In this document: positions 1 through 56,481 of the stretch, piece by piece
How positions within the stretch are numbered: the stretch's first letter is position 1
Layout of the letters: the number at the start of each line of letters is the position of its first letter
DNA from: a virus
Strand: one strand, 5' to 3'
IMG/VR virus record: IMGVR_UViG_3300023184_000039
Span: 1 to 64,000 of that record
DNA: 64,000 bases
Notes under the pieces: generated by a model
Told to the model about the DNA's origin: nothing
Seen by the model: only the letters and a program-made list of their open reading frames with translations
The model's database searches: none
Translations under genes and position numbers: made by a program

Positions 1-22
1 TTCTTGCAATGTTCTCTTTACA

Positions 23-469
23 TTGATGAAAGTAGGAAATAGAATGACGGTGGTGGAAGTCCCTCTAGAACTTGAGTTATTCCCGGCTCTGAAGACCGAA
101 GGTTTAAAAAAGATGGAAAAAGATAACAATTTGAAAACTCCCGCGGGGGACAAACCTCCACGTCGGACAAGAAAACCAAGTTTAAACCTAGTAGACCGGG
201 TTGATGCCGCTGAGATTATTAGAATTTTTGAATACTGGAAGATGCTTCACGACAAAAAGAGGGCAAAGCTTGATGACAACCGCTGCGCATATATCGCAAG
301 AGGCATCCTCGAATACGGAACTGAGGCTTGTATGGAGGCTATCAAAGGATGCTCCTTATCTGATTGGCACATGGGAACTAACCCAGGCAGCAAGTTCTAC
401 AACTCCATCGAACTCATCCTCCGAGACTCAGAGCATGTCGAACGGTTTAGGGATATAATCCATGATTAG
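23..469 (+). CDS. Putative replication initiator / replisome-organizer-like protein
   Basis: C-terminal helical segment IFEYW...CMEAIKGCSLSDWHMG.N...YNSIELILRD resembles conserved phage replication-protein C-termini; a G39P-like gene lies downstream. Start uncertain (23, 26 or 44). Confidence 0.45.
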   Translation: MMKVGNRMTVVEVPLELELFPALKTEGLKKMEKDNNLKTPAGDKPPRRTRKPSLNLVDRVDAAEIIRIFEYWKMLHDKKRAKLDDNRCAYIARGILEYGTEACMEAIKGCSLSDWHMGTNPGSKFYNSIELILRDSEHVERFRDIIHD

Positions 470-638
470 CAATGTATTTATTAATGACGGTGGTGGAAAG
501 GCCGGCACTTCAAAGAATCTCCAGATTATTGATGTGATTCAAGCAATGATGGAGTCTGAGCACTGCTTGTTTAACAATAAAGATGAGAATTTAATGCATC
601 CCGAACCGGTGGAGGACTGCAGTGACGACCAGCTCTGA
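462..638 (+). CDS. Small hypothetical protein (58 aa, below ORF-track cutoff)
   Basis: Read manually (MISNVFINDGGGKAG...DCSDDQL*); fills the gap between the 23..469 and 622..831 ORFs and overlaps both slightly. Confidence 0.4.
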   Translation: MISNVFINDGGGKAGTSKNLQIIDVIQAMMESEHCLFNNKDENLMHPEPVEDCSDDQL

Positions 639-831
639 AGACGGCGGCGACGAAATCATAGAAATTGAGAACAATGTTGGCTATACAATGGACGACCTAG
701 CTCGCGACATGGAGTATCTACGAGTTCAGGGTCTTATCGAAGTAGTCGGCATCACCCCAGATGGCGAAGCACTGTGGGGGATAACCCCTAAAGGTTCGGA
801 AGTATTTGATGACGGTGGGGGAAAGCCATGA
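622..831 (+). CDS. Hypothetical acidic protein, possible winged-helix fragment
   Basis: GGAGG RBS upstream of GTG; LARDMEYLRVQGLIEV...WGITPKG looks like a wHTH wing; stop overlaps next start (ATGA). Confidence 0.55.
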   Translation: MTTSSEDGGDEIIEIENNVGYTMDDLARDMEYLRVQGLIEVVGITPDGEALWGITPKGSEVFDDGGGKP

Positions 832-1286
832 CCTCAGACGAAACGCGCGCGCTAGTCAAGAAAGTATACGCAGCCTATAACCAGACTCTCTACAAGAACA
901 CCCAAGAGGATGTCTTTACTGTATGGGAAGACCTACTAGGCCATTATGACATGACGGTGGTGTATGACACCTTCAAAGAGTTAGCCACTCAGAGTGTTTA
1001 CATGCCCTCGCCCGGTCAGTTACGTAGACAAGTCCTCGACAAGTTAAGCGGCGACCGTATCCCAAGTGCTATGGAAGCATGGACCACCATACAGACCATG
1101 ACCCAACATGCCAATGCTGGCACCCCCTCGAAGATTCAGTTACACGAATGCATCCAAAGGACTATCACCAAGCTAGGTGACCAGGCTTACTCCCTGTCTA
1201 CTACCTACGACCGAACGTTCTTCGCCAATGAGTATGCCGTGACGGTGGGGGAATACGAGCGCGAGATGATGCAGAGGTTGGGATGA
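828..1286 (+). CDS. Helicase loader/inhibitor G39P-like protein
   Basis: MTSDETRALVKKVYAAY...W.DLL..YD...V......LA....YMPSPGQLR matches the SPP1 G39P-type pattern; ATGA coupling. Confidence 0.6.
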   Translation: MTSDETRALVKKVYAAYNQTLYKNTQEDVFTVWEDLLGHYDMTVVYDTFKELATQSVYMPSPGQLRRQVLDKLSGDRIPSAMEAWTTIQTMTQHANAGTPSKIQLHECIQRTITKLGDQAYSLSTTYDRTFFANEYAVTVGEYEREMMQRLG

Positions 1287-1507
1287 GCCACCCCTTCATG
1301 CCAGTTACAACTACAAAAATTCGGCAGAGTGAAAAAAGGCACACGCAGAAAAGCTTTTTCCCTATTCCTTACTCTTCATTATCGGTGGTTGCCTTCTCTC
1401 TCCTCCTTCTCACCCGTATTCCTCGGAAGTGGCTCTTGACATCCCTCATCTCTCTTGTCCTTGTGTTCCTGTCTCCCCTTCTCCTATTCATTGACGGTGG
1501 GGGATAG
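1283..1507 (+). CDS. Small membrane protein
   Basis: Two hydrophobic stretches; ATGA-coupled to the upstream gene; DNA is strongly pyrimidine-rich. Confidence 0.45.
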   Translation: MSHPFMPVTTTKIRQSEKRHTQKSFFPIPYSSLSVVAFSLLLLTRIPRKWLLTSLISLVLVFLSPLLLFIDGGG

Positions 1508-1509
1508 TA

Positions 1510-1730: not shown

Positions 1731-1898
1731 ATGAAAAAGCGAGCAGGTCGAAAAGCAGTTATCCCCACCAAGCCAGTAACTACCCTGACTTTACGCATCT
1801 CCCGTGAGGAGAAGGTAACGCTCATTGAGAAGTCATCCATATACGATATGTCATTGACCGAATACCTGATGATGTTGGTGGCTAGGGATGGGTCGTAG
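1731..1898 (+). CDS. Ribbon-helix-helix DNA-binding protein
   Basis: AGGAG RBS at 1721 before ATG 1731; TLTLRIS..EK..L.EKS....MSLTEYL is an Arc/CopG-type RHH signature. Confidence 0.7.
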   Translation: MKKRAGRKAVIPTKPVTTLTLRISREEKVTLIEKSSIYDMSLTEYLMMLVARDGS

Positions 1899-2232
1899 TC
1901 CTACTGTTCCTTCTCACCCCTCTAGGTATTACTCTCTCCTACTACGCTTAAAGGGAAGTCAGAAACAGACGATTCTTGAATATGCGCGCGCCCACGGCCT
2001 GAGCATGAACCAATTAATCCTGTATTCCGTACTTCGCTTCATTGATGAGAAGCAGGGGATTCCTCAGCCAGGTCCGTCCCAGTATTCTCTGGTAGAGGAA
2101 AAGTATAAAATTCAATCCCTTTTAGACGGCGAGCAGTTACTCACCCCTTGTGGTAAAACGAGATGCAAGATGGTTCTGGAAGATATTGACGGTTTGCAGT
2201 TCTGCACAACCTGTAACATACGAGTTCTATGA
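1888..2232 (+). CDS. Ribbon-helix-helix protein with C-terminal zinc ribbon
   Basis: LLLRL....KQTILEYARAHGLSMNQLI (RHH) plus CGKTRC...CTTC. Confidence 0.65.
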   Translation: MGRSPTVPSHPSRYYSLLLRLKGSQKQTILEYARAHGLSMNQLILYSVLRFIDEKQGIPQPGPSQYSLVEEKYKIQSLLDGEQLLTPCGKTRCKMVLEDIDGLQFCTTCNIRVL

Positions 2233-2428
2233 ACGCCCCTGTATCGGCTCACTCTTATAAGGTGTTGGAACCGTAGGGGTACACGTTGGTTCAATTCCAA
2301 CCAGGGGCACTATTAGTTGAAATGTCTTCGCAGTAAGTCAAGGTTCATTTGGTCTGACACATGAGTATCCGGCAGTAACCGTATTGTCAGTCCCAATAGT
2401 GTCCTCAATAGGAATCTTCTTACCCTCA

Positions 2429-2761
2429 TCAGTCTCCCCACATCTGTGCAAGGGTGGGTCTCACTGGTTTGATGAGGCGGCGCCGCTGTTCTGCAGCAAG
2501 CTGTCTACTTGTCAATCCCGCCCATACACCGTGCATATCGGCAGGTGGAAACTCGAGTGCGTACCTCAAACAAGGTGTTTTCACAGGGCACTCTTTACAT
2601 ATAGAACGGGCTACTGCGATGTATGTAATATCCTTATGTTCTTTGGGGAACATGAGGTTTGTTGAGCCCTTACAATTCGCTCTGTCCATCCATGCTTTAT
2701 TACCTGTTTTAGATTGTATAGCAACGAACTGAACCTGCTGAATTGGTTTTTTCTTAACCAT
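2429..2761 (-). CDS. whiB: WhiB family Fe-S transcription regulator
   Basis: WMDRANC...MFP...ARSICKECPVKTPCLRYAL...GVWAGLT: four Cys and the G(V/I)W(G/A)G turn. Confidence 0.95.
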   Translation of the reverse strand: MVKKKPIQQVQFVAIQSKTGNKAWMDRANCKGSTNLMFPKEHKDITYIAVARSICKECPVKTPCLRYALEFPPADMHGVWAGLTSRQLAAEQRRRLIKPVRPTLAQMWGD

Positions 2762-2845: not shown

Positions 2846-3469
2846 TTATTTAGTCTTTTTTAAACCAGACTCTTGAATAAATGTGTGATAAGGGAATCCG
2901 GTGTATGGGTCAAACTTGGCAGCAATTGAGAGTGCCTTAAGAGCCATTGTCTTTGCTATTGCTGGGGTGATTTCCTTCTTGGGATACATTGCAGTCAAAC
3001 AGCCCAATGCATATTGCGCGCCCGTCCCTATGGAGTAGACCCCGCTTGCATCTGACATCCACGAGTAATCTCCGTCAATAATGTAGATAACGCCATTGAC
3101 CGCACAAACAATGACCGAACCCTGTTCGGCTGTATGGTCCTTATCCTCTTTGTCTGGTGTTGAATACCCGTGCATGTCAAAGCATTCTCTTAGTGCTGGT
3201 ATGAAACTGACAGTCATAAAGTGGTCAAGTTGCCTACCCTTGACACTCCCGGCAATTGGTGGGGGCTGGAATGCATGGTGCAATATATTGATTGCTCGTA
3301 CATCGCCAGCAGCACCCAGTAAATACTTACCGTTTGTTGCAATCTTGGACGACGACTCTTTGAGGGTATATATCTGTGTTGCTAGACCAGAATCACCCAT
3401 ATCGGAAACACGGGAGTCAACACACAATAAAGCAAAGTTGCCCCCCTGTATTCCGATAATGGTTGTCAT
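2846..3469 (-). CDS. Ntn-hydrolase (proteasome beta / HslV-like) protease
   Basis: N-terminal M-T-T-I-I-G nucleophile, DSR, a Lys before LLGAAG, SIGTGAQYALG, and D.YTG. Confidence 0.8.
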   Translation of the reverse strand: MTTIIGIQGGNFALLCVDSRVSDMGDSGLATQIYTLKESSSKIATNGKYLLGAAGDVRAINILHHAFQPPPIAGSVKGRQLDHFMTVSFIPALRECFDMHGYSTPDKEDKDHTAEQGSVIVCAVNGVIYIIDGDYSWMSDASGVYSIGTGAQYALGCLTAMYPKKEITPAIAKTMALKALSIAAKFDPYTGFPYHTFIQESGLKKTK

Positions 3470-7133: not shown

Positions 7134-10100
7134 CTAACCCTCGTCTGGCTCTTTCATATGAAGATACATAGATGCAGTAAAGGCCAAGACCGTTCCCCAA
7201 AGAGCGACCTTTTGAGTTAATCCCGAAAGGGTGAAGTACATGACCGTGGCTCCAGCAAGAGTGAATCCAGATGCCATAATTCCGTAAACAAACTTTGTTG
7301 CAAATTTCTTCCAGTCCATAATCCTTACTCCATTTTCATATTTGTAAATAGATATCCGCTTAATCCACTCAGGACCTTCGCCCTCAATGGCTCCGCCTTC
7401 CTCAGCTTCCTCTTCTTCCTCTTTGCGGGCCGCAACGTCTTGTCTTGGACCAGATGGACTAGAACCTGGGGTTGGAATTGCACCAGCCGCCGAAGCAATA
7501 GCAACAGTGCTGGTTACCAAGTTTACAGCAATCACGCTTCTTCTTGTACCAACATTGAGGGTTGACCCCAACGGCATGTATGTGTCGAAGACTCCAGCGA
7601 ACACATTTATCTCTTCTTCAAAGGATTCCTTGACGCCTACCGGAGCATCGGCAAGAGCTTCTGAAATAGCAGCACCAGATTCTGCGGACACTTCTGATAC
7701 TACGATTGCGTTAAAGACTGCAGTTGCTTGTTCTGCATCAATGCTCTCAAGAACCTTGGCACTTGTTGCCAATTCAGTTGCTTGACTTGATTCAACTCCA
7801 TCGTCTTTGCCAATAATCAAGTCAACAACTTGAGCAACCTGGTCGCTTGTGATGCTTGCGTTTTCGAGCACGTTTACAACTTCCGCAAACTTTTCTGCAG
7901 TCAATGGGGTGTCAAGAACCGCACTAAATGTTCCAACCAAAATCTCGTCAGAGACTTTCTCATCAAATATTGCGTTAATTACTGTGCTGAACTCTTCTGT
8001 GCTCAATGGTTCTGCTAGAACTTCTCCAGCAAGAGCTACCGTGTCCGCTGCAGAAAGGTCTCCGTCAAAAACGCTATTGAATACAGCGGAAAGATTTTCG
8101 CCAGACAAATCACCAGAGAGTAGGTCCCCAAGAACAGCGCCAGCATCAGCGACGGATATGTCTTTGTCAAACACTGCATCCATTACTTTTGCTATATCTG
8201 ATGCACTAGCTGGTCCATTGAGGATTGTACCGAGTGCCGAAACCATTGCATCTGGTGACGCTGTATCCGAGAATGCTGCATCAAGAACTTTTGTTAGTTC
8301 AGCATCGCTCAAATCTGCGCCAAGCATCGTGGTCAGTGCGGCAGTGAATACTTCAGGTGAAACATCTTCTGTAAATACTGCATCTAGAATTTTTCCCAGT
8401 TGTTTATCTGTAATGTCCGCACCCAAAACGGAGTCAAGTACAGCCGTCACGTCCTCGGCGGAAGCGTCAGGAGTGAATGCATCATCAAGCACTTTGTCTA
8501 GTTCTTTGTTTGAAATAGGTTCTCCGACGATAAAGTCAGGGATAGATGTATCTACTGGAATTACCTCTTCAACTGCTGGCGGCTCTGTTGTCTCTGATGT
8601 TTCTGGCAGGGTCTCTGGTGTGGTTATTTCTACAGGCAGCGTCTCTGTTGTGGCAGGGATGGTTACTTCTGGCATTGTGGAGTCTGTCTCAGGCAATACG
8701 GGGACGACTATTACCGCTGGGATTGTGGTTATTGTCGTTATTGTTTCTGGCACCGTTGTTGAACTACTTGTAGTAGTTGTACTGCTTGTAGTAGTAGAAC
8801 CAGGGATGGTCGTAGAGGTAGTTGTAGTTGTAGTTGTAGTTGTTGTCGGCGCAACACTGACATTTGCTGATTGCGTAAACAAAGTTGTCTCTTGGTTGAA
8901 TCCAACATTTCCACCAACATTGGATGTTCCATTCCACAGGTAATAAGTAATCCATGTTCCATTTTCGTCAAAAGAGTTATTGGTTACTGTTGCCCATTTT
9001 GGGTCTTTGTGACCATTGTTATAGCCATCATCAAGATAGATAGCCATACTGTTGTTGGTAAATGTGTTTCCATTAATCAAACGGTTATCTGAACCCATAT
9101 TGAATGTTGTCGGAATCGAAGCATTGTGATAGATGGCTATTGAGTTGTGGTCAAATGTTGAGTTCAGGATTTGTGTGCGGTTTAAACCAGTAATGTTTGC
9201 TGCATAACTATTATAAGTAAATGTTGAATCAACAACTTTTGTAAAACGATAGTTGTAGATGCCAGCTCCGTTGTGGTCAAAAATGCAGTTGTTTACATAT
9301 GTTTTATTTCCAAAAACGGAGTCAGGTTCACTTGCCCATGTAGTTGTTCCAGCGGCTAACTGTGGGGTGGAGCCATAGTCACCAGCAATACCATTGTTCA
9401 AATAGTCAAAGGTGCAATTTGTGTATGTTGCAGTAGAGCCACCGTTATTATTCCAAACAGCACTACCGCCGTTCATACCCGTAAAGCGAATATTTGTTGC
9501 CGATACTGTTCCCTGTGAGTTATAAATCAAACCACCATTGGTTGCTTGACCCTGCTTAAGAGTCATGTCTGAAACAGTCAATGTTTTACCAGATTGAACA
9601 TAAAAAATACGATATGCATTGTTCCCATCAATAATTGTATTAGTGCGACCATTTCCGGTTATTGTCACACTTTGAGAAATTTGAGGAAGCGCACTTGTAA
9701 GAACAATTATTCCGTTTACATCAAAAGTAATTGAATCGTACATTCCTCCAGAATTAGCATTTGCTTGAGTTATTGCCCAGCGAAGAGTTCCAGATGAAGT
9801 CGTATCATCAAGACTGGTTACGACAAGTGAAGTAGGAGCAGGTGGAATTGTTGTAGTCGTTGTAGTAGAAGTCGTAGTGCTAGTTGAAGTAGTTGTAGTT
9901 GTCGCGGCAGTAGTTGTAGGGGCAACAGTAGGAGCAGTTTCATTATTTGGCTCAACACCACCGAAGGTCACGCATGAACCACCAGCTTGATTACACGAGA
10001 GTGTCGTTCCTATTTCATCGTCAACCATAAGAACTGGAGACAAGGCTGTGTCGTCGAGGTTGAATGCAACAAAGCCCATCTTGTAGGTTCCTGTTATGGA

Positions 10101-26935: not shown

Positions 26936-27784
26936 TCAGATGAAATTCTTGTACTTTTCCACCACGCTTGGGATGATTGTTCCAGTGCCATTTTCATTAA
27001 GATAAACATATGGACGCAGTAGTTTTCCATTCTGTTTACTTATTTCCGTCCATTCTTCAATTCCATATGTGGCAACATTTTTGTGCCATTCTTCTGTTCC
27101 AGCAAATGGATATTTAATAAAATTCCGTGCCATAATTTTATCTCCCCCAGTAACACATTTTACAGAATGAAAATACGGCTTTCCACCTGGGAATAATGGC
27201 GAACCAGACGGGAAAACTAAAATATCTCCAGATTTTGGTTTATATGTAAATACTTTATCCAAAACAAAAAATTGAATTTCTCCACCGTCATAGTCATCTC
27301 CTAGGTAGGTAATACAGGTTATAAGAAATTTTTCCCCAGGAGAACCCATTGATTCTATTTGAAAATCAGAATGATACCCCATTGCTAGATTTCCAAAAAG
27401 TGCATCATTGGAACGTTCTTGAATTATTTTATATCTGGCGAGGCTTGGAGTCGTAACAAAAGAACCATCCGGCAATGGGACGTTGTTTGATGTTACATAA
27501 TTTGACATAGCACAGGATGTTGCCAATCCCAGTGATTCGTGTAGGAAAAACTCATCCACAAATTCACCATTGACCGTAATTGTCTCACCTAGCAATTCTA
27601 CTTTTTCGCTTGAGTATTTACCAAATGAAAGCCAGTCTGTCCACTCTTCATATATATATTTACCTTTATGAATTTGTTCTGAGTTGCGTATTATATTAAG
27701 AAGGTGCTCGTGGTTTGGAAGTAGTTTTCGGTAGACACAAATCAAATCGTGAATGTATTCTTTTTCAAAATTTAACCCAAACAT
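26936..27784 (-). CDS. Prolyl-4-hydroxylase-type Fe(II)/2OG dioxygenase
   Basis: HSD, YLGDDYDGGEI.F, GDILVFPS...YFHSVK.V..GDK. Confidence 0.9.
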   Translation of the reverse strand: MFGLNFEKEYIHDLICVYRKLLPNHEHLLNIIRNSEQIHKGKYIYEEWTDWLSFGKYSSEKVELLGETITVNGEFVDEFFLHESLGLATSCAMSNYVTSNNVPLPDGSFVTTPSLARYKIIQERSNDALFGNLAMGYHSDFQIESMGSPGEKFLITCITYLGDDYDGGEIQFFVLDKVFTYKPKSGDILVFPSGSPLFPGGKPYFHSVKCVTGGDKIMARNFIKYPFAGTEEWHKNVATYGIEEWTEISKQNGKLLRPYVYLNENGTGTIIPSVVEKYKNFI

Positions 27785-54029: not shown

Positions 54030-54575
54030 TCACCTATCTGGGTTGGGTGGAACCTCAACGGAAATATCATTAACCACGGCCGCTGAAATCTCAATTGGAA
54101 CCCAAGCACGAGAGTATGTGTGTTGAGAAATTTTCCTTATTTTGATGAGTGTTCCCTCAAGTAGCAATTCTAGTTCGTCGTGTTTCATGCAAAAAATTCT
54201 TTCAAACTCCGAGGTCGTAATGGCTCCAGAAAACGATAATTTTTTTACTATTCCAGAAAGCCTCTTGGCAACAAGGCTCCCCCGACCACGATTCATTTGG
54301 ACATGAAGCACCATGGCTTGAAGCGCGCCGCAGTCCATGTAGACAACAGGAACGACACCACCAAGTTTTAGTTTGATATGCGGGTTTTGCGATGCCAAAT
54401 AGAATCTTTGATGACCGTCAATTATTTCCCCGGTAGATTTCCTAATCAATAACGGCGAAAGTATTCCATTGTCAAATATTGATGCCGATAAGACCAGTAG
54501 GTCTGGCCGGAGTATGTAGTTTGCTGCCCATTCGGATGGTTTAATTTTGGTAATCTCAACCATTTCAACTTTCAT
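54030..54575 (-). CDS. ParB/Srx N-terminal domain protein (IbrB-like)
   Basis: SI...GI..P+++......EIIDGHQR; +NR.RG; coupled to the PAPS-reductase-family gene. Confidence 0.8.
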   Translation of the reverse strand: MKVEMVEITKIKPSEWAANYILRPDLLVLSASIFDNGILSPLLIRKSTGEIIDGHQRFYLASQNPHIKLKLGGVVPVVYMDCGALQAMVLHVQMNRGRGSLVAKRLSGIVKKLSFSGAITTSEFERIFCMKHDELELLLEGTLIKIRKISQHTYSRAWVPIEISAAVVNDISVEVPPNPDR

Positions 54576-55704
54576 CTAATACAACCTCAATCATTTCTGT
54601 TTGTCTGACTGTGTGCGCTCTTGTCCCTGGGCCTATCGGCGATGCTGATGTCACATTGATTTCATTAAGCAAGAGGTTCCTGATGAGCCAATTAATTGGA
54701 TATGAATGTGGGTCCATGTTGTGTTTACTTCTAAACTGTGAAACAAAAGCTCGCGCACGACGTTGCTTTGTTTCCCCCATTATGAATTCATCTATAAATC
54801 TTCCAGCACCAGAAAAACCTTCAGATGAATACATTGATATCAAACCCTCCACATCAAATTCCGACCACATTCTTCTTTGGGAATCAATTCGTGGATACAC
54901 CTCAACCAACCTGTCATAAAATTCTGGCTCCGTAGCAACGACATCACCTATCCTGCGAATCGCCACAGAATGTAGGGGTATACCAACCCTCGTGTTGCTC
55001 CCAGTGATTGCAGCCAAATCGTAGTACTCGCAATATTCTGCCCCATGTTCTTCCGTAATAAATTTGAGGACATCGTCCATCTGCCAGTCGTAAATAACTT
55101 TTGCAAACCTTAAGGGTATTCCCTTTTTCATTTTGAACGGTATGACAATGTAATTTTCGTGCAACTTCTGCACACACGAGCGATACCGAATCATTGATTC
55201 GTTTGCCCTTACTCCGGTAATAAATGCAACTCGCCCAGTTTTTCCTTGCATTGTGTAGTAGTCAACAGATTCAGGAAGAGCCTTCTCGTGCGTCAATCCA
55301 AAATGGTTTGCATTGATTGCAAAATCCGGCATTGGTCTAATCCACTCACCGGAAAGCCTTCTTCTCTCGCTCCACAGAATTGCCGATTCCCTTCGACCAA
55401 GAATCCATATTTCTGCACCGTACGGGAGGCAGTACCACTCCATGTCAACCCAGTCGTAGTCACGAACCTTCATTACATAGTCAATGACCGTTGGACTCAC
55501 CATTTCCTCGTCACGAAAAATTACCTTTACCGGACCCAGACCGCGTTCTTCGTGAATCTCTTTGGCAAGATATAAAACAGCAGTTGAATCTTTCCCTCCA
55601 GAGAACTGAACACAGACTGTGTCAAATGTGTCGTAAACATGCCTCATTCGTGCGCGAGCCGCATCAACGCATGACATGTCCAGAAACATTCGCTGTCTTG
55701 TCAT
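54565..55704 (-). CDS. PAPS reductase family protein (IbrA / DUF3440-like)
   Basis: AARARM....DTFD..CV.FSGGKDS PP-loop; F.DEE; W.CLP; GVRANES..R; IYDW...DV; RV..P. Confidence 0.85.
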   Translation of the reverse strand: MTRQRMFLDMSCVDAARARMRHVYDTFDTVCVQFSGGKDSTAVLYLAKEIHEERGLGPVKVIFRDEEMVSPTVIDYVMKVRDYDWVDMEWYCLPYGAEIWILGRRESAILWSERRRLSGEWIRPMPDFAINANHFGLTHEKALPESVDYYTMQGKTGRVAFITGVRANESMIRYRSCVQKLHENYIVIPFKMKKGIPLRFAKVIYDWQMDDVLKFITEEHGAEYCEYYDLAAITGSNTRVGIPLHSVAIRRIGDVVATEPEFYDRLVEVYPRIDSQRRMWSEFDVEGLISMYSSEGFSGAGRFIDEFIMGETKQRRARAFVSQFRSKHNMDPHSYPINWLIRNLLLNEINVTSASPIGPGTRAHTVRQTEMIEVVLDES

Positions 55705-55713
55705 TGTTGTTTA

Positions 55714-56481
55714 CTAAACCTCGCAGTGTTCGTCAATAAAATTCATTAGTCGCTCAGATGTTGTGTTCCCATCAATCCCTGGGTCATTGCGCAACCATCT
55801 TACGAAGTTGTACCAACGCGACTGCTGTTCAATATTGTCAAACACAATCGTGTATTGAACAATTGCATTTGCTGACTTTGAGCCAGTTGCAACAGTGCTT
55901 CCTCGTGCTGCTAATTCCTCGTGAGGAATGTCGTCGTTTGCTTCTAGGTCTCCGTCAGAATTAATATCACCAACAGACTTCTTGGCTTCGTTTGTCGTCC
56001 GTATTATTTCTGGGGGAGTGAATGTTGTGCTTGTGGCAAGAGTGCTTTCCTCAATTGAGGATATTTCATGCATTGCCGCCATATCAAATTCATCCCACCC
56101 AAGACCAGCAAACAGTTCTGAGAACTCATCAGAAATTTCTAAAAGGATTTCAGAAAGGATGGAGTCATCGGTTCTTCCGAGTTCAACAGTCTTGTTGTCG
56201 GCAATAGCAAATGCAAGTGCACGCGATTCATTTCCGTCAAAAAATATGCAAGCAATTTCATCCCACCCAAGTTTTTTTGCGGCAAGAAGTTGGTGATTGC
56301 CAGCAATAACGGTTGCCGTTCCATCGTCGTTCTTCCTTGCAACAATGGGCTTTACTTGACCGAACTCATAGTAGGAAGCAACGATTGCATCCACATCGCC
56401 ATGTCGTGGGTTTCTCTCAAGGGCAACAAGTGAGTCAATCGGAACTCTAAGTTGCGATAGGGATTTGTGAATATTTGTCAT
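55714..56481 (-). CDS. ParB N-terminal domain protein
   Basis: NPRHGDVDAIVASY.EFGQVKPIV; VIAGNH.L.AAKKLGW; IADNK. Confidence 0.85.
   Translation of the reverse strand: MTNIHKSLSQLRVPIDSLVALERNPRHGDVDAIVASYYEFGQVKPIVARKNDDGTATVIAGNHQLLAAKKLGWDEIACIFFDGNESRALAFAIADNKTVELGRTDDSILSEILLEISDEFSELFAGLGWDEFDMAAMHEISSIEESTLATSTTFTPPEIIRTTNEAKKSVGDINSDGDLEANDDIPHEELAARGSTVATGSKSANAIVQYTIVFDNIEQQSRWYNFVRWLRNDPGIDGNTTSERLMNFIDEHCEV

Follow-up and report, generated by a model that had tools for sequence, protein, structure and literature searches.

A repeated polar word in a block of replication genes

We analysed a 64,000-nucleotide stretch of viral DNA (IMG/VR record IMGVR_UViG_3300023184_000039, positions 1 to 64,000), referred to here as the window, at the start of which a short asymmetric word recurs on one strand around genes for an initiator-like protein and a helicase loader. 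The source is an uncultured lake phage represented by a single contig of 140,645 bp, of which the window is the first 64 kb. The end of the contig, genome 140519-140645 (L001:12519-12645), repeats window 1-127; this 127-bp overlap reflects assembly of a circular or permuted genome, and window coordinate 1 is thus an arbitrary cut. The window opens in the middle of the cluster of words, the remaining copies of which lie upstream across the contig join.

On the circle the nine-mer TGACGGTGG has 13 unique plus-strand copies spread over ~8.7 kb, from genome 133420 through the join to 1492, at spacings of 142-2,300 bp. Six of them, at window positions 45, 485, 810, 952, 1240 and 1492, had been reported as exact matches in an earlier note on this DNA and were re-found, with the irregular spacings and differing reading frames (MTVV, DGGG, VTVG) described there; the other seven lie at genome 133420, 135386, 137694, 138957, 139386, 139779 and 140302. 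The window contains 8 copies of the nine-mer against 0.29 expected from dinucleotide-preserving shuffles. The only two minus-strand matches on the whole circle, at 27290 and 43815 in the window, both lack the 3′ extension of the word defined below.

The full motif is present in 12 of the 13 unique copies. A whole-genome scan with a matrix built from other phages only, in which a score of 17 or more was taken as strong, returned 12 strong sites (score 17-31), all on the plus strand and all inside the block; the next best score was 15.7, and shuffled genomes gave 0-3 matches at a score of at least 14. With the upstream sequence included, the cluster extends past the window start and is confined to one block. 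A partial copy suspected near 606 matches only the 3′ half of the word and scores below threshold. The six motif copies within the window are as follows.

43..61, plus strand: motif copy, score 26.6; overlaps the ATG at 44 of the initiator-like open reading frame (ORF), directly after a -10-like TAGAAT
483..501, plus strand: motif copy, score 28.7; 16 nt after the initiator-like ORF stop, with TATTAA before it
808..826, plus strand: motif copy, score 23.9; 3′ end of ORF 622..831, 18 nt before the helicase-loader ATG
950..968, plus strand: motif copy, score 24.2; inside the helicase-loader gene, with GTA for GGA
1238..1256, plus strand: motif copy, score 17.1; near the helicase-loader 3′ end, 43 nt before the start of ORF 1283
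1490..1508, plus strand: motif copy, score 23.0; end of ORF 1283..1507, 18 nt before the ATG at 1510

The copy internal to the helicase-loader gene is also found in a relative (L035). The nine-mer at genome 137694 (L001:9694) stands without the GGA extension, as it does at the equivalent place in two other lineages (L013:6288 and L175:3804). There it lies inside a conserved 504-amino-acid gene, 217 nt before the stop codon, and its conservation is probably that of the encoded peptide, not of a regulatory site. No record was returned by an exact look-up of the 504-amino-acid protein.

The block comprises ~11 kb of plus-strand genes between minus-strand genes, and also encodes an Xre-type helix-turn-helix protein (HTH_3) and an AAA ATPase. 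Its other main genes and the genes that adjoin it are listed here.

23..469, plus strand: initiator-like protein, C-terminal, lambda O-like part (phrog_16167, E 4.6e-12; phrog_18020, O-like)
828..1286, plus strand: G39P-like helicase loader (PF11417 just under the cut-off; phrog_2289)
1731..1898, plus strand: RHH1, a 55-amino-acid putative ribbon-helix-helix (RHH) protein (NikA-like, E 0.035, sub-threshold)
1888..2232, plus strand: RHH2-Zn, a 114-amino-acid putative RHH protein with a C-terminal four-Cys zinc ribbon (sub-threshold RHH-family matches)
2429..2761, minus strand: WhiB-family protein (PF02467, E 8e-14), adjoining the block
2846-3469, minus strand: proteasome-subunit-like protein (PF00227, E 1.3e-7), beside the WhiB gene
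genome 139857-140282 (L001:11857-12282): K+ channel protein of 141 amino acids (PF07885, E 2.9e-12), between two motif copies

The WhiB gene and the proteasome-like gene that follow the block point to an actinobacterial host. The initiator frame is open upstream across the join to genome 140397 (196 amino acids). While the gene is one open frame here, it is split at the motif in L104-type lineages (L104:12901-13467, compared with genome 140397..469): the N-terminal part ends at the motif, its in-frame TAG coming from the -10 (TAGGAT) of a promoter that follows, and a leaderless ATG begins the C-terminal O-like part anew. Directly 3′ of the last gene of the block, at window 2235-2308 on the plus strand, is a tRNA-like element with a 7-bp acceptor-like stem, a GGTTCAATTCCAACC T-arm and a minimum free energy of -28.4 kcal/mol (z -2.0). 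Its Rfam matches were all sub-threshold (tRNA-Sec at 21.9 bits and, on the opposite strand, a family of tRNA-like plastid untranslated regions), and ARAGORN made no call. Comparison of the first 6 kb of the window with GenBank phages by blastn gave no match, and a literature search for the nine-mer returned primer coincidences only.

Definition and conservation of the word in related phages

We derived a consensus from 92 non-redundant instances from many phages. The core is GACGGTGG and the full element, of ~18 bp, reads aT-TGACGGTGG-Y-GGA-(A/T)-(G/A)-(A/G)-(C/G), or in summary form aT-TGACGGTGG-Y-GGA-W-R-R. The conserved span runs from -2 to +16, so that the 14-bp consensus of the earlier note proved too short; no position is conserved beyond +16 and the 5′ flank is A/T-rich. 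The motif holds ~28 bits of conservation while its flanks are near zero. Its variable positions mostly show transitions (Y at +9, R at +14 and +15), with +9 the most variable of all.

A scan of IMG/VR with part of the word found many contigs with co-oriented clusters of their own, of up to 8 copies in 3 kb. The proteins of these contigs match the block proteins of the source phage at 28-80% identity, identifying them as syntenic relatives, and the motif is exact there. An unbiased set of loci was fetched by means of the AAA ATPase of the block, not the motif, and gave 52 loci (a search with the helicase-loader protein gave 2 only). Across these 52 loci, 277 core nine-mers are on the block strand against 9 on the opposite strand, and 45 loci have multiple copies. 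All 7 distinct opposite-strand matches are without the GGA extension. In whole genomes of relatives, four nine-mer matches that lie elsewhere than in the block, or on its other strand, were checked and also lack it; such matches are truncated chance matches. For the 3′ half, GGTGGNGGA, the counts are 361 (block strand) and 20 (opposite strand), and it nearly always follows (T/A)TGAC or a near variant. Searches with half-motifs recover both halves joined, which shows the motif to be one composite element. Whole genomes of four relatives each carry one cluster of 10-23 kb, with 0-2 matches to a reversed-word control; the motif is thus kept in the orthologous regions of relatives and is not evenly spread over their genomes. 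In two lineages (L175 and L177) the -35-like half has drifted to TTACGG with ACGGTGGTGGAA kept.

The word has no dyad symmetry: inverted partners numbered 15 upstream of the motif and 19 in a downstream control, and RNA structure at the motif was not in excess. A hairpin, dyad or terminator reading was dropped for want of an inverted partner or RNA structure. An imperfect inverted copy (CCCACCACTGTCAA ... TTGACGGTGGTGG) does lie 12-14 nt upstream of the first two copies of the block, at genome 133388-133436 and 135360-135402 (L001:5388-5436 and 7360-7402), but is no general feature of the motif. Likenesses to a DnaA box, an extracytoplasmic-function sigma factor promoter and a G-quadruplex, judged by eye, were also dropped, as each is contradicted by the variable +9 or a missing second block. 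The 5′ half of the motif (-2..+8, ATTGACGG) may resemble universal 16S rRNA around 915-925 (AAUUGACGGGGG) in sense orientation; a nine-mer match between an 18-mer and ~4.5 kb of rRNA would presumably arise by chance roughly once in 6 cases, a rough estimate.

Position of the word relative to genes

Motif sites favour gene junctions. When compared with random positions in the same loci, 18% of sites as against 61% lay deep inside long ORFs, 37% as against 16% were near the stop of the upstream ORF, and 53% as against 24% were followed within 100 nt by the start of the next long ORF. The distance from motif to start is nevertheless broad, without a fixed value, ranging from -1 to >100 nt. At 12 of 131 sites the upstream ORF terminates on the TGA of the motif itself, and an ATG at -1 or +12 is sometimes the downstream start: 20 of 92 copies have an ATG at +12, and it is at this ATG that the helicase-loader gene really starts in L046 and L061. 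For the source genome, where distances were taken from independent gene calls on near-identical contigs, starts lie from -1 to +282 (including 18, 18, 24, 41, 43, 78, 91, 95 and 282) and one copy is intragenic; only 3 of the 12 copies fall in ribosome-site range.

As RNA, the word would pair with the 16S rRNA 3′ tail (anti-Shine-Dalgarno) at -7.5 to -9.8 kcal/mol, which is like ordinary ribosome sites in this phage and within the top few percent of random 18-mers. An extended Shine-Dalgarno reading was dropped given this ordinary pairing, and a fixed ribosome-site element is not supported.

Overlap of the word with promoters

A TAnnnT hexamer is sharply enriched at +22 of the motif, that is after a 17-nt spacer from TTGACG, with 11 occurrences against a background of 0.9 per offset. 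At +21..+23 it is present in 15 of 92 sites and in 22 of 173 sites of the unbiased set (13%); counted as -35 elements, the sites number 23 of 174. Most of these sites belong to a conserved pair that precedes the initiator gene, with 300-380 bp between its members, and an ATG often lies 6-7 nt past the -10; the T at -1 that completes TTGAC is found in 22 of 22 of them as against 58% of the others. The enrichment of TAnnnT 17 nt downstream and the universal T at -1 show that at 13% of sites the word serves as the -35 element of real sigmaA-type promoters. At the other 87% the residual -10 signal is at background level, and none of the 12 copies in the source genome has a -10 in register. A generic scan for sigma70 promoters and terminators was at chance level overall.

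The initiator gene of the source phage is preceded by the best match of the promoter scan.

17..45, plus strand: sigmaA-type promoter-like site, TTTACA-17 nt-TAGAAT (10 of 12 positions)

The last base of its TAGAAT -10 is also the first T of the motif copy at 45, which would place this copy across the predicted transcription start. Orthologous promoters are found in the two closest lineages (TTGACA-18-TACTAT in L133 and TTGACA-17-TAGTAT in L134). The motif therefore stays at the initiator promoter while its register shifts, lying over the -35 and spacer in many relatives and over the start site in the source genome, L133 and L134. Such flexibility of register is more readily explained by a repressor operator than by an activator site or a core promoter.

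The source genome carries a second repeated word, tGTCTCAnnaGCGTCCCA-N6-TAnnnT (GTCTCA/GTCCCA-N6-TAnnnT), in 24 copies on both strands between genome 111659 and 135611. It is always co-oriented with the next gene, always has TAnnnT 6 nt downstream, and leads into either a leaderless ATG or a conserved CACCTACTA...AGGAG leader. The last copies are at L001:5461, 5975 and 7611, and one copy begins ~30 nt after the motif copy at 133420. The last plus-strand promoter of this class is at 135611, and the following 7 kb contain none of them and ten motif copies. Family searches detected neither sigma regions 2 and 4 nor a multisubunit RNA polymerase; a search for T7-type RNA polymerase was uninformative, as its controls were silent.

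Other lineages of the group carry further repeated words. Two lineages without the motif (L183 and L180) have 9-11 repeated textbook sigmaA promoters in the corresponding region. L184:6482-13393 has a palindromic 12-mer, CTAATCATTAG, just before ribosome sites. L177:303-9963 has TTACAGGCAATAAT on the opposite strand, a TTGnCn-17-TAAGGT promoter with a leaderless ATG, in 16 copies, and in the L104 lineage (L104/L055, e.g. the L055:9768 region) CTAGATAAGTC lies 20-40 nt downstream of several motif copies. Each lineage of the phage group thus has a repeated regulatory word or words of its own.

Candidate proteins that would read the word

Of the loci compared, 28 had enough flank for a co-occurrence test, 25 of them motif-positive and only three motif-negative. 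The initiator, the loader and RHH1 were present in 25/25 motif-positive loci, and RHH2-Zn and the WhiB protein in 24/25. No motif-negative locus (0/3) carries the initiator, the loader or RHH2-Zn, all three having an altogether different replication module. The HTH_3 protein is an unlikely reader, being present in only 18/25 motif-positive loci and absent from 7/25. The strand TLTLR of RHH1 is invariant in alignment A2, and its predicted DNA-facing residues are kept in motif-positive lineages, with T changed to A only in the two lineages that have the TTACGG word. The AlphaFold model of RHH2-Zn has a predicted local distance difference test (pLDDT) score of 54, too poor for a fold search. One strong matrix match in the motif-negative L183 was set aside, as it falls inside a coding gene far from the RHH1 homologue. 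The proposal of the earlier note that the two RHH proteins bind the word therefore gains from their co-occurrence with it (25/25 and 24/25) and is held back by the weak fold assignment and the presence of RHH1 in a motif-free lineage. Elsewhere in the window two ParB_N-domain proteins are encoded at 54384-56445 on the minus strand; these are not diagnostic of an immunity repressor.

Comparison with known systems

The operators and stoperators of the L5 clade (L5 gp71, Bxb1, TipsytheTRex) are short sites without dyad symmetry, oriented with transcription, and in these temperate Cluster A phages a few sites are operators in promoters while most lie in short intergenic spaces throughout the genome, each bound by the immunity repressor (a helix-turn-helix plus a stoperator domain) as a monomer (PMC9283540, PMC6550527). 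The word described here is likewise without dyad symmetry, is present in many co-oriented copies in a phage of a probable actinobacterial host, and has few of its copies in promoters and most at short intergenic spaces and junctions. It differs in that the site is 18 bp long and not 13-14 bp, in that the sites occupy an early/replication block of 9-23 kb and not both genome arms, and in that the genome is 140 kb without an integrase or other sign of lysogeny. A gp71-like repressor was not identified here, although no direct gp71 homology search was made. Stoperator words change along with immunity specificity, while the present word is also invariant between phages that share only 28-80% protein identity. 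Taken together, the likeness to L5-type stoperators drawn in the earlier note extends to asymmetry, co-orientation, siting at junctions and overlap with promoters in two registers, and does not extend to family membership: the motif is not a member of the L5-clade operator/stoperator family.

Almost all Start-Associated Sequences (SAS) of Cluster K phages are found 3-7 bp upstream of a start codon (Pope et al. 2011, PMC3203893). Like SAS, whose function is unproven, the word is asymmetric, in one orientation, restricted to non-structural genes, has a Shine-Dalgarno-like purine/G core, is conserved across subgroups before unrelated genes and sometimes contains the upstream stop codon. Unlike SAS, a subset of its copies forms the -35 of real promoters, and its broad start distances (-1 to >100 nt) exclude it from that family.

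Phage promoter words, such as the 24-copy class above and the T4 middle promoters, which consist of a MotA box plus a -10, are long words at the -35 and spacer that are co-oriented and repeated through an early region, as is the motif, and 13% of motif copies share this geometry exactly. Promoter words always keep their -10, however, whereas 87% of motif copies are without one and the register is not fixed. Lambdoid or SPP1-type origins and plasmid iterons consist of asymmetric direct repeats of 17-22 bp linked to the initiator gene. The motif shares the asymmetric direct repeats, the link to an initiator and one copy overlapping the initiator promoter, but has neither a phased tandem array nor an adjacent unwinding region, its copies being hundreds of bp apart and spread among many unrelated genes.

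The word as a proposed polar docking site for a regulator

The word is most likely a docking site for a transcription regulator, with a layout resembling that of stoperators. In the form that we favour, to which we would give a probability of about 0.45, a conserved phage protein that accompanies the replication module uses the motif as its operator or roadblock. The motif would then work in cis as DNA, and the protein, specific for this sequence, would read it in one orientation; candidates are the RHH-like pair at 1731-2232 and the initiator. Copies at the initiator promoter overlap the predicted RNA polymerase footprint, so that their occupancy would repress initiation, as at an operator; the L5 operator at Pleft also covers a TTGACA-like -35. 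The remaining copies, in small gaps and at gene ends of a block transcribed in one direction, may act as polar roadblocks or as regulatory tags on passing transcription, by which one protein could switch off, or time, the whole early/replication block. From this layout we infer that a protein binds, which protein it may be and that binding is repressive. The match to the published L5-clade operator/stoperator layout (PMC9283540, PMC6550527) appears to support this reading, as does the absence of a recognisable phage sigma factor or RNA polymerase that could read the word as a single-block promoter.

Several points weigh against a repressor site of this kind. Family searches found no tyrosine integrase or serine recombinase, and since the phage shows no sign of lysogeny the prophage-silencing purpose of stoperators cannot apply. 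No immunity-repressor family is represented among the block proteins, with the limit already given for gp71. The sites occupy a single block (~8.7 kb of 140.5 kb), not the whole genome, and the word is invariant across lineages in the way that stoperator words are not. As the genes of the block are all co-directional, orientation with transcription is inseparable from orientation on one absolute strand, and a role at the level of RNA would predict equal polarity. With regard to the readers, an RHH1-like protein with the usual strand residues occurs in a motif-free lineage, the RHH folds rest on sub-threshold family matches and a low-confidence model, and co-occurrence rests on three motif-negative loci only.

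Alternatively, every copy could be a phage-specific promoter of a middle or replication class, used by a modified host RNA polymerase or an unrecognised phage factor, with transcription starting at or near the invariant A at +12 to give leaderless or short-leader mRNAs. A single conserved block, co-oriented upstream of gene starts, with a -35-like TTGACG, an A/T-rich 5′ flank and an ATG at exactly +12 in 20/92 copies, would suit such a promoter; 22/173 copies are textbook -35/-10 promoters, the 24-copy class implies that this phage group uses long promoter words, and motif-free sister lineages carry 9-11 repeated canonical sigmaA promoters in the corresponding region. We nonetheless consider it rather unlikely, as 87% of copies, including all of those in the source genome, have no -10 in register and nothing is conserved past +16, the stretch that would need to melt is G/C-rich, and it is the -35-like half that has drifted in L175 and L177 while ACGGTGGTGGAA is kept. 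Neither a phage RNA polymerase nor a sigma factor is detectable, and the initiator copy would be redundant given the complete promoter just upstream in the source lineage. Somewhat less likely again is that the word acts as RNA on a polycistronic transcript, either as a tag for translation initiation or coupling or as a site for binding or cleavage by an RNA-binding protein, comparable to the Cluster K SAS. The strictly sense orientation, the G-rich sequence with its pairing of -7.5 to -9.8 kcal/mol, the preference for transitions at +9, +14 and +15, the use of the TGA as a stop in 12/131 sites and starts at -1, +12 and +18 (in the source genome +18, +18 and +24 after copies 810, 1492 and 138957) would all be expected of it. 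The spread of start distances, with 3/12 source copies in ribosome-site range, is not, and the pairing is of unexceptional strength; moreover the conserved 5′ TTGAC half adds nothing to pairing, no structure is present, and in the conserved pair of promoters transcription would start downstream of the motif.

The earlier note had also raised an origin of replication. Autoregulated iteron plasmids have a repeat over the initiator promoter, and the iterons to which monomeric Rep proteins bind are asymmetric. Copies of the word acting as iterons, to define or control an origin and autoregulate the initiator gene, would agree with a site of ~18 bp without symmetry, with an initiator-like protein in 25/25 motif-positive and 0/3 motif-negative loci, with the highest density around the initiator and loader genes, and with one copy overlapping the initiator promoter in every lineage. 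Such a role is improbable on the present data: spacings of 142-2,300 bp over 9-23 kb in relatives do not make a tight phased array, a matrix scan of the source genome found no closely spaced degenerate copies, junction copies lie far from the initiator, and the similarity of the protein to O-like initiators is limited to their C-terminal, partner-binding part. GC skew, suggested as a check for an origin, follows the gene strand without an inflection at the block and therefore gives no compositional support. The siting of copies at junctions, always co-oriented with the genes, argues rather for a role in gene expression. It appears very improbable that the word is a Chi-like recombination signal or a repeated boundary sequence promoting exchange of cassettes. 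The word is polar and G-rich, E. coli Chi contains the GGTGG that it shares, and copies stand at the boundaries of a mosaic region in which gene content differs between relatives. Chi sites, however, are words of 5-8 nt that are over-represented in one orientation genome-wide, and the comparison fails on the length of 18 bp and on the confinement of the word to one block, with none elsewhere in the genome. The 65-87% nucleotide identity of relatives was too low to place homology breakpoints, which therefore gave no link to the copies.

Implications for the regulation of uncultured actinophages

A wider proposal, which goes beyond a polar operator or roadblock and which we regard as speculative and unlikely as a whole, is that an apparently lytic group of large actinophages times or shuts off its early/replication genes by polar roadblocks, applying stoperator logic outside lysogeny. 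The reader would be a small RHH-type protein or an RHH1/RHH2 heterodimer; with its genes at the end of the block it would exert negative feedback after a delay, and the word would be a -35, an operator, a stop codon and a ribosome site at once.

To our knowledge, experimental evidence for repeated words that are polar with transcription comes almost entirely from the Cluster A mycobacteriophages, in which their task is to silence the prophage. The present word is spelled differently but has a like layout; it is conserved in widespread uncultured freshwater actinophages of ~130-170 kb without lysogeny genes, and is more conserved than any surrounding protein. It can serve as a simple sequence marker for the replication module of this phage group, and calls for caution in annotation, as start codons, stop codons and ribosome sites are here embedded in a regulatory word. 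If a protein does read the word, the two would make up a compact and portable switch for a block of genes, and may offer a handle on timing in the phages of hosts that are hard to culture.

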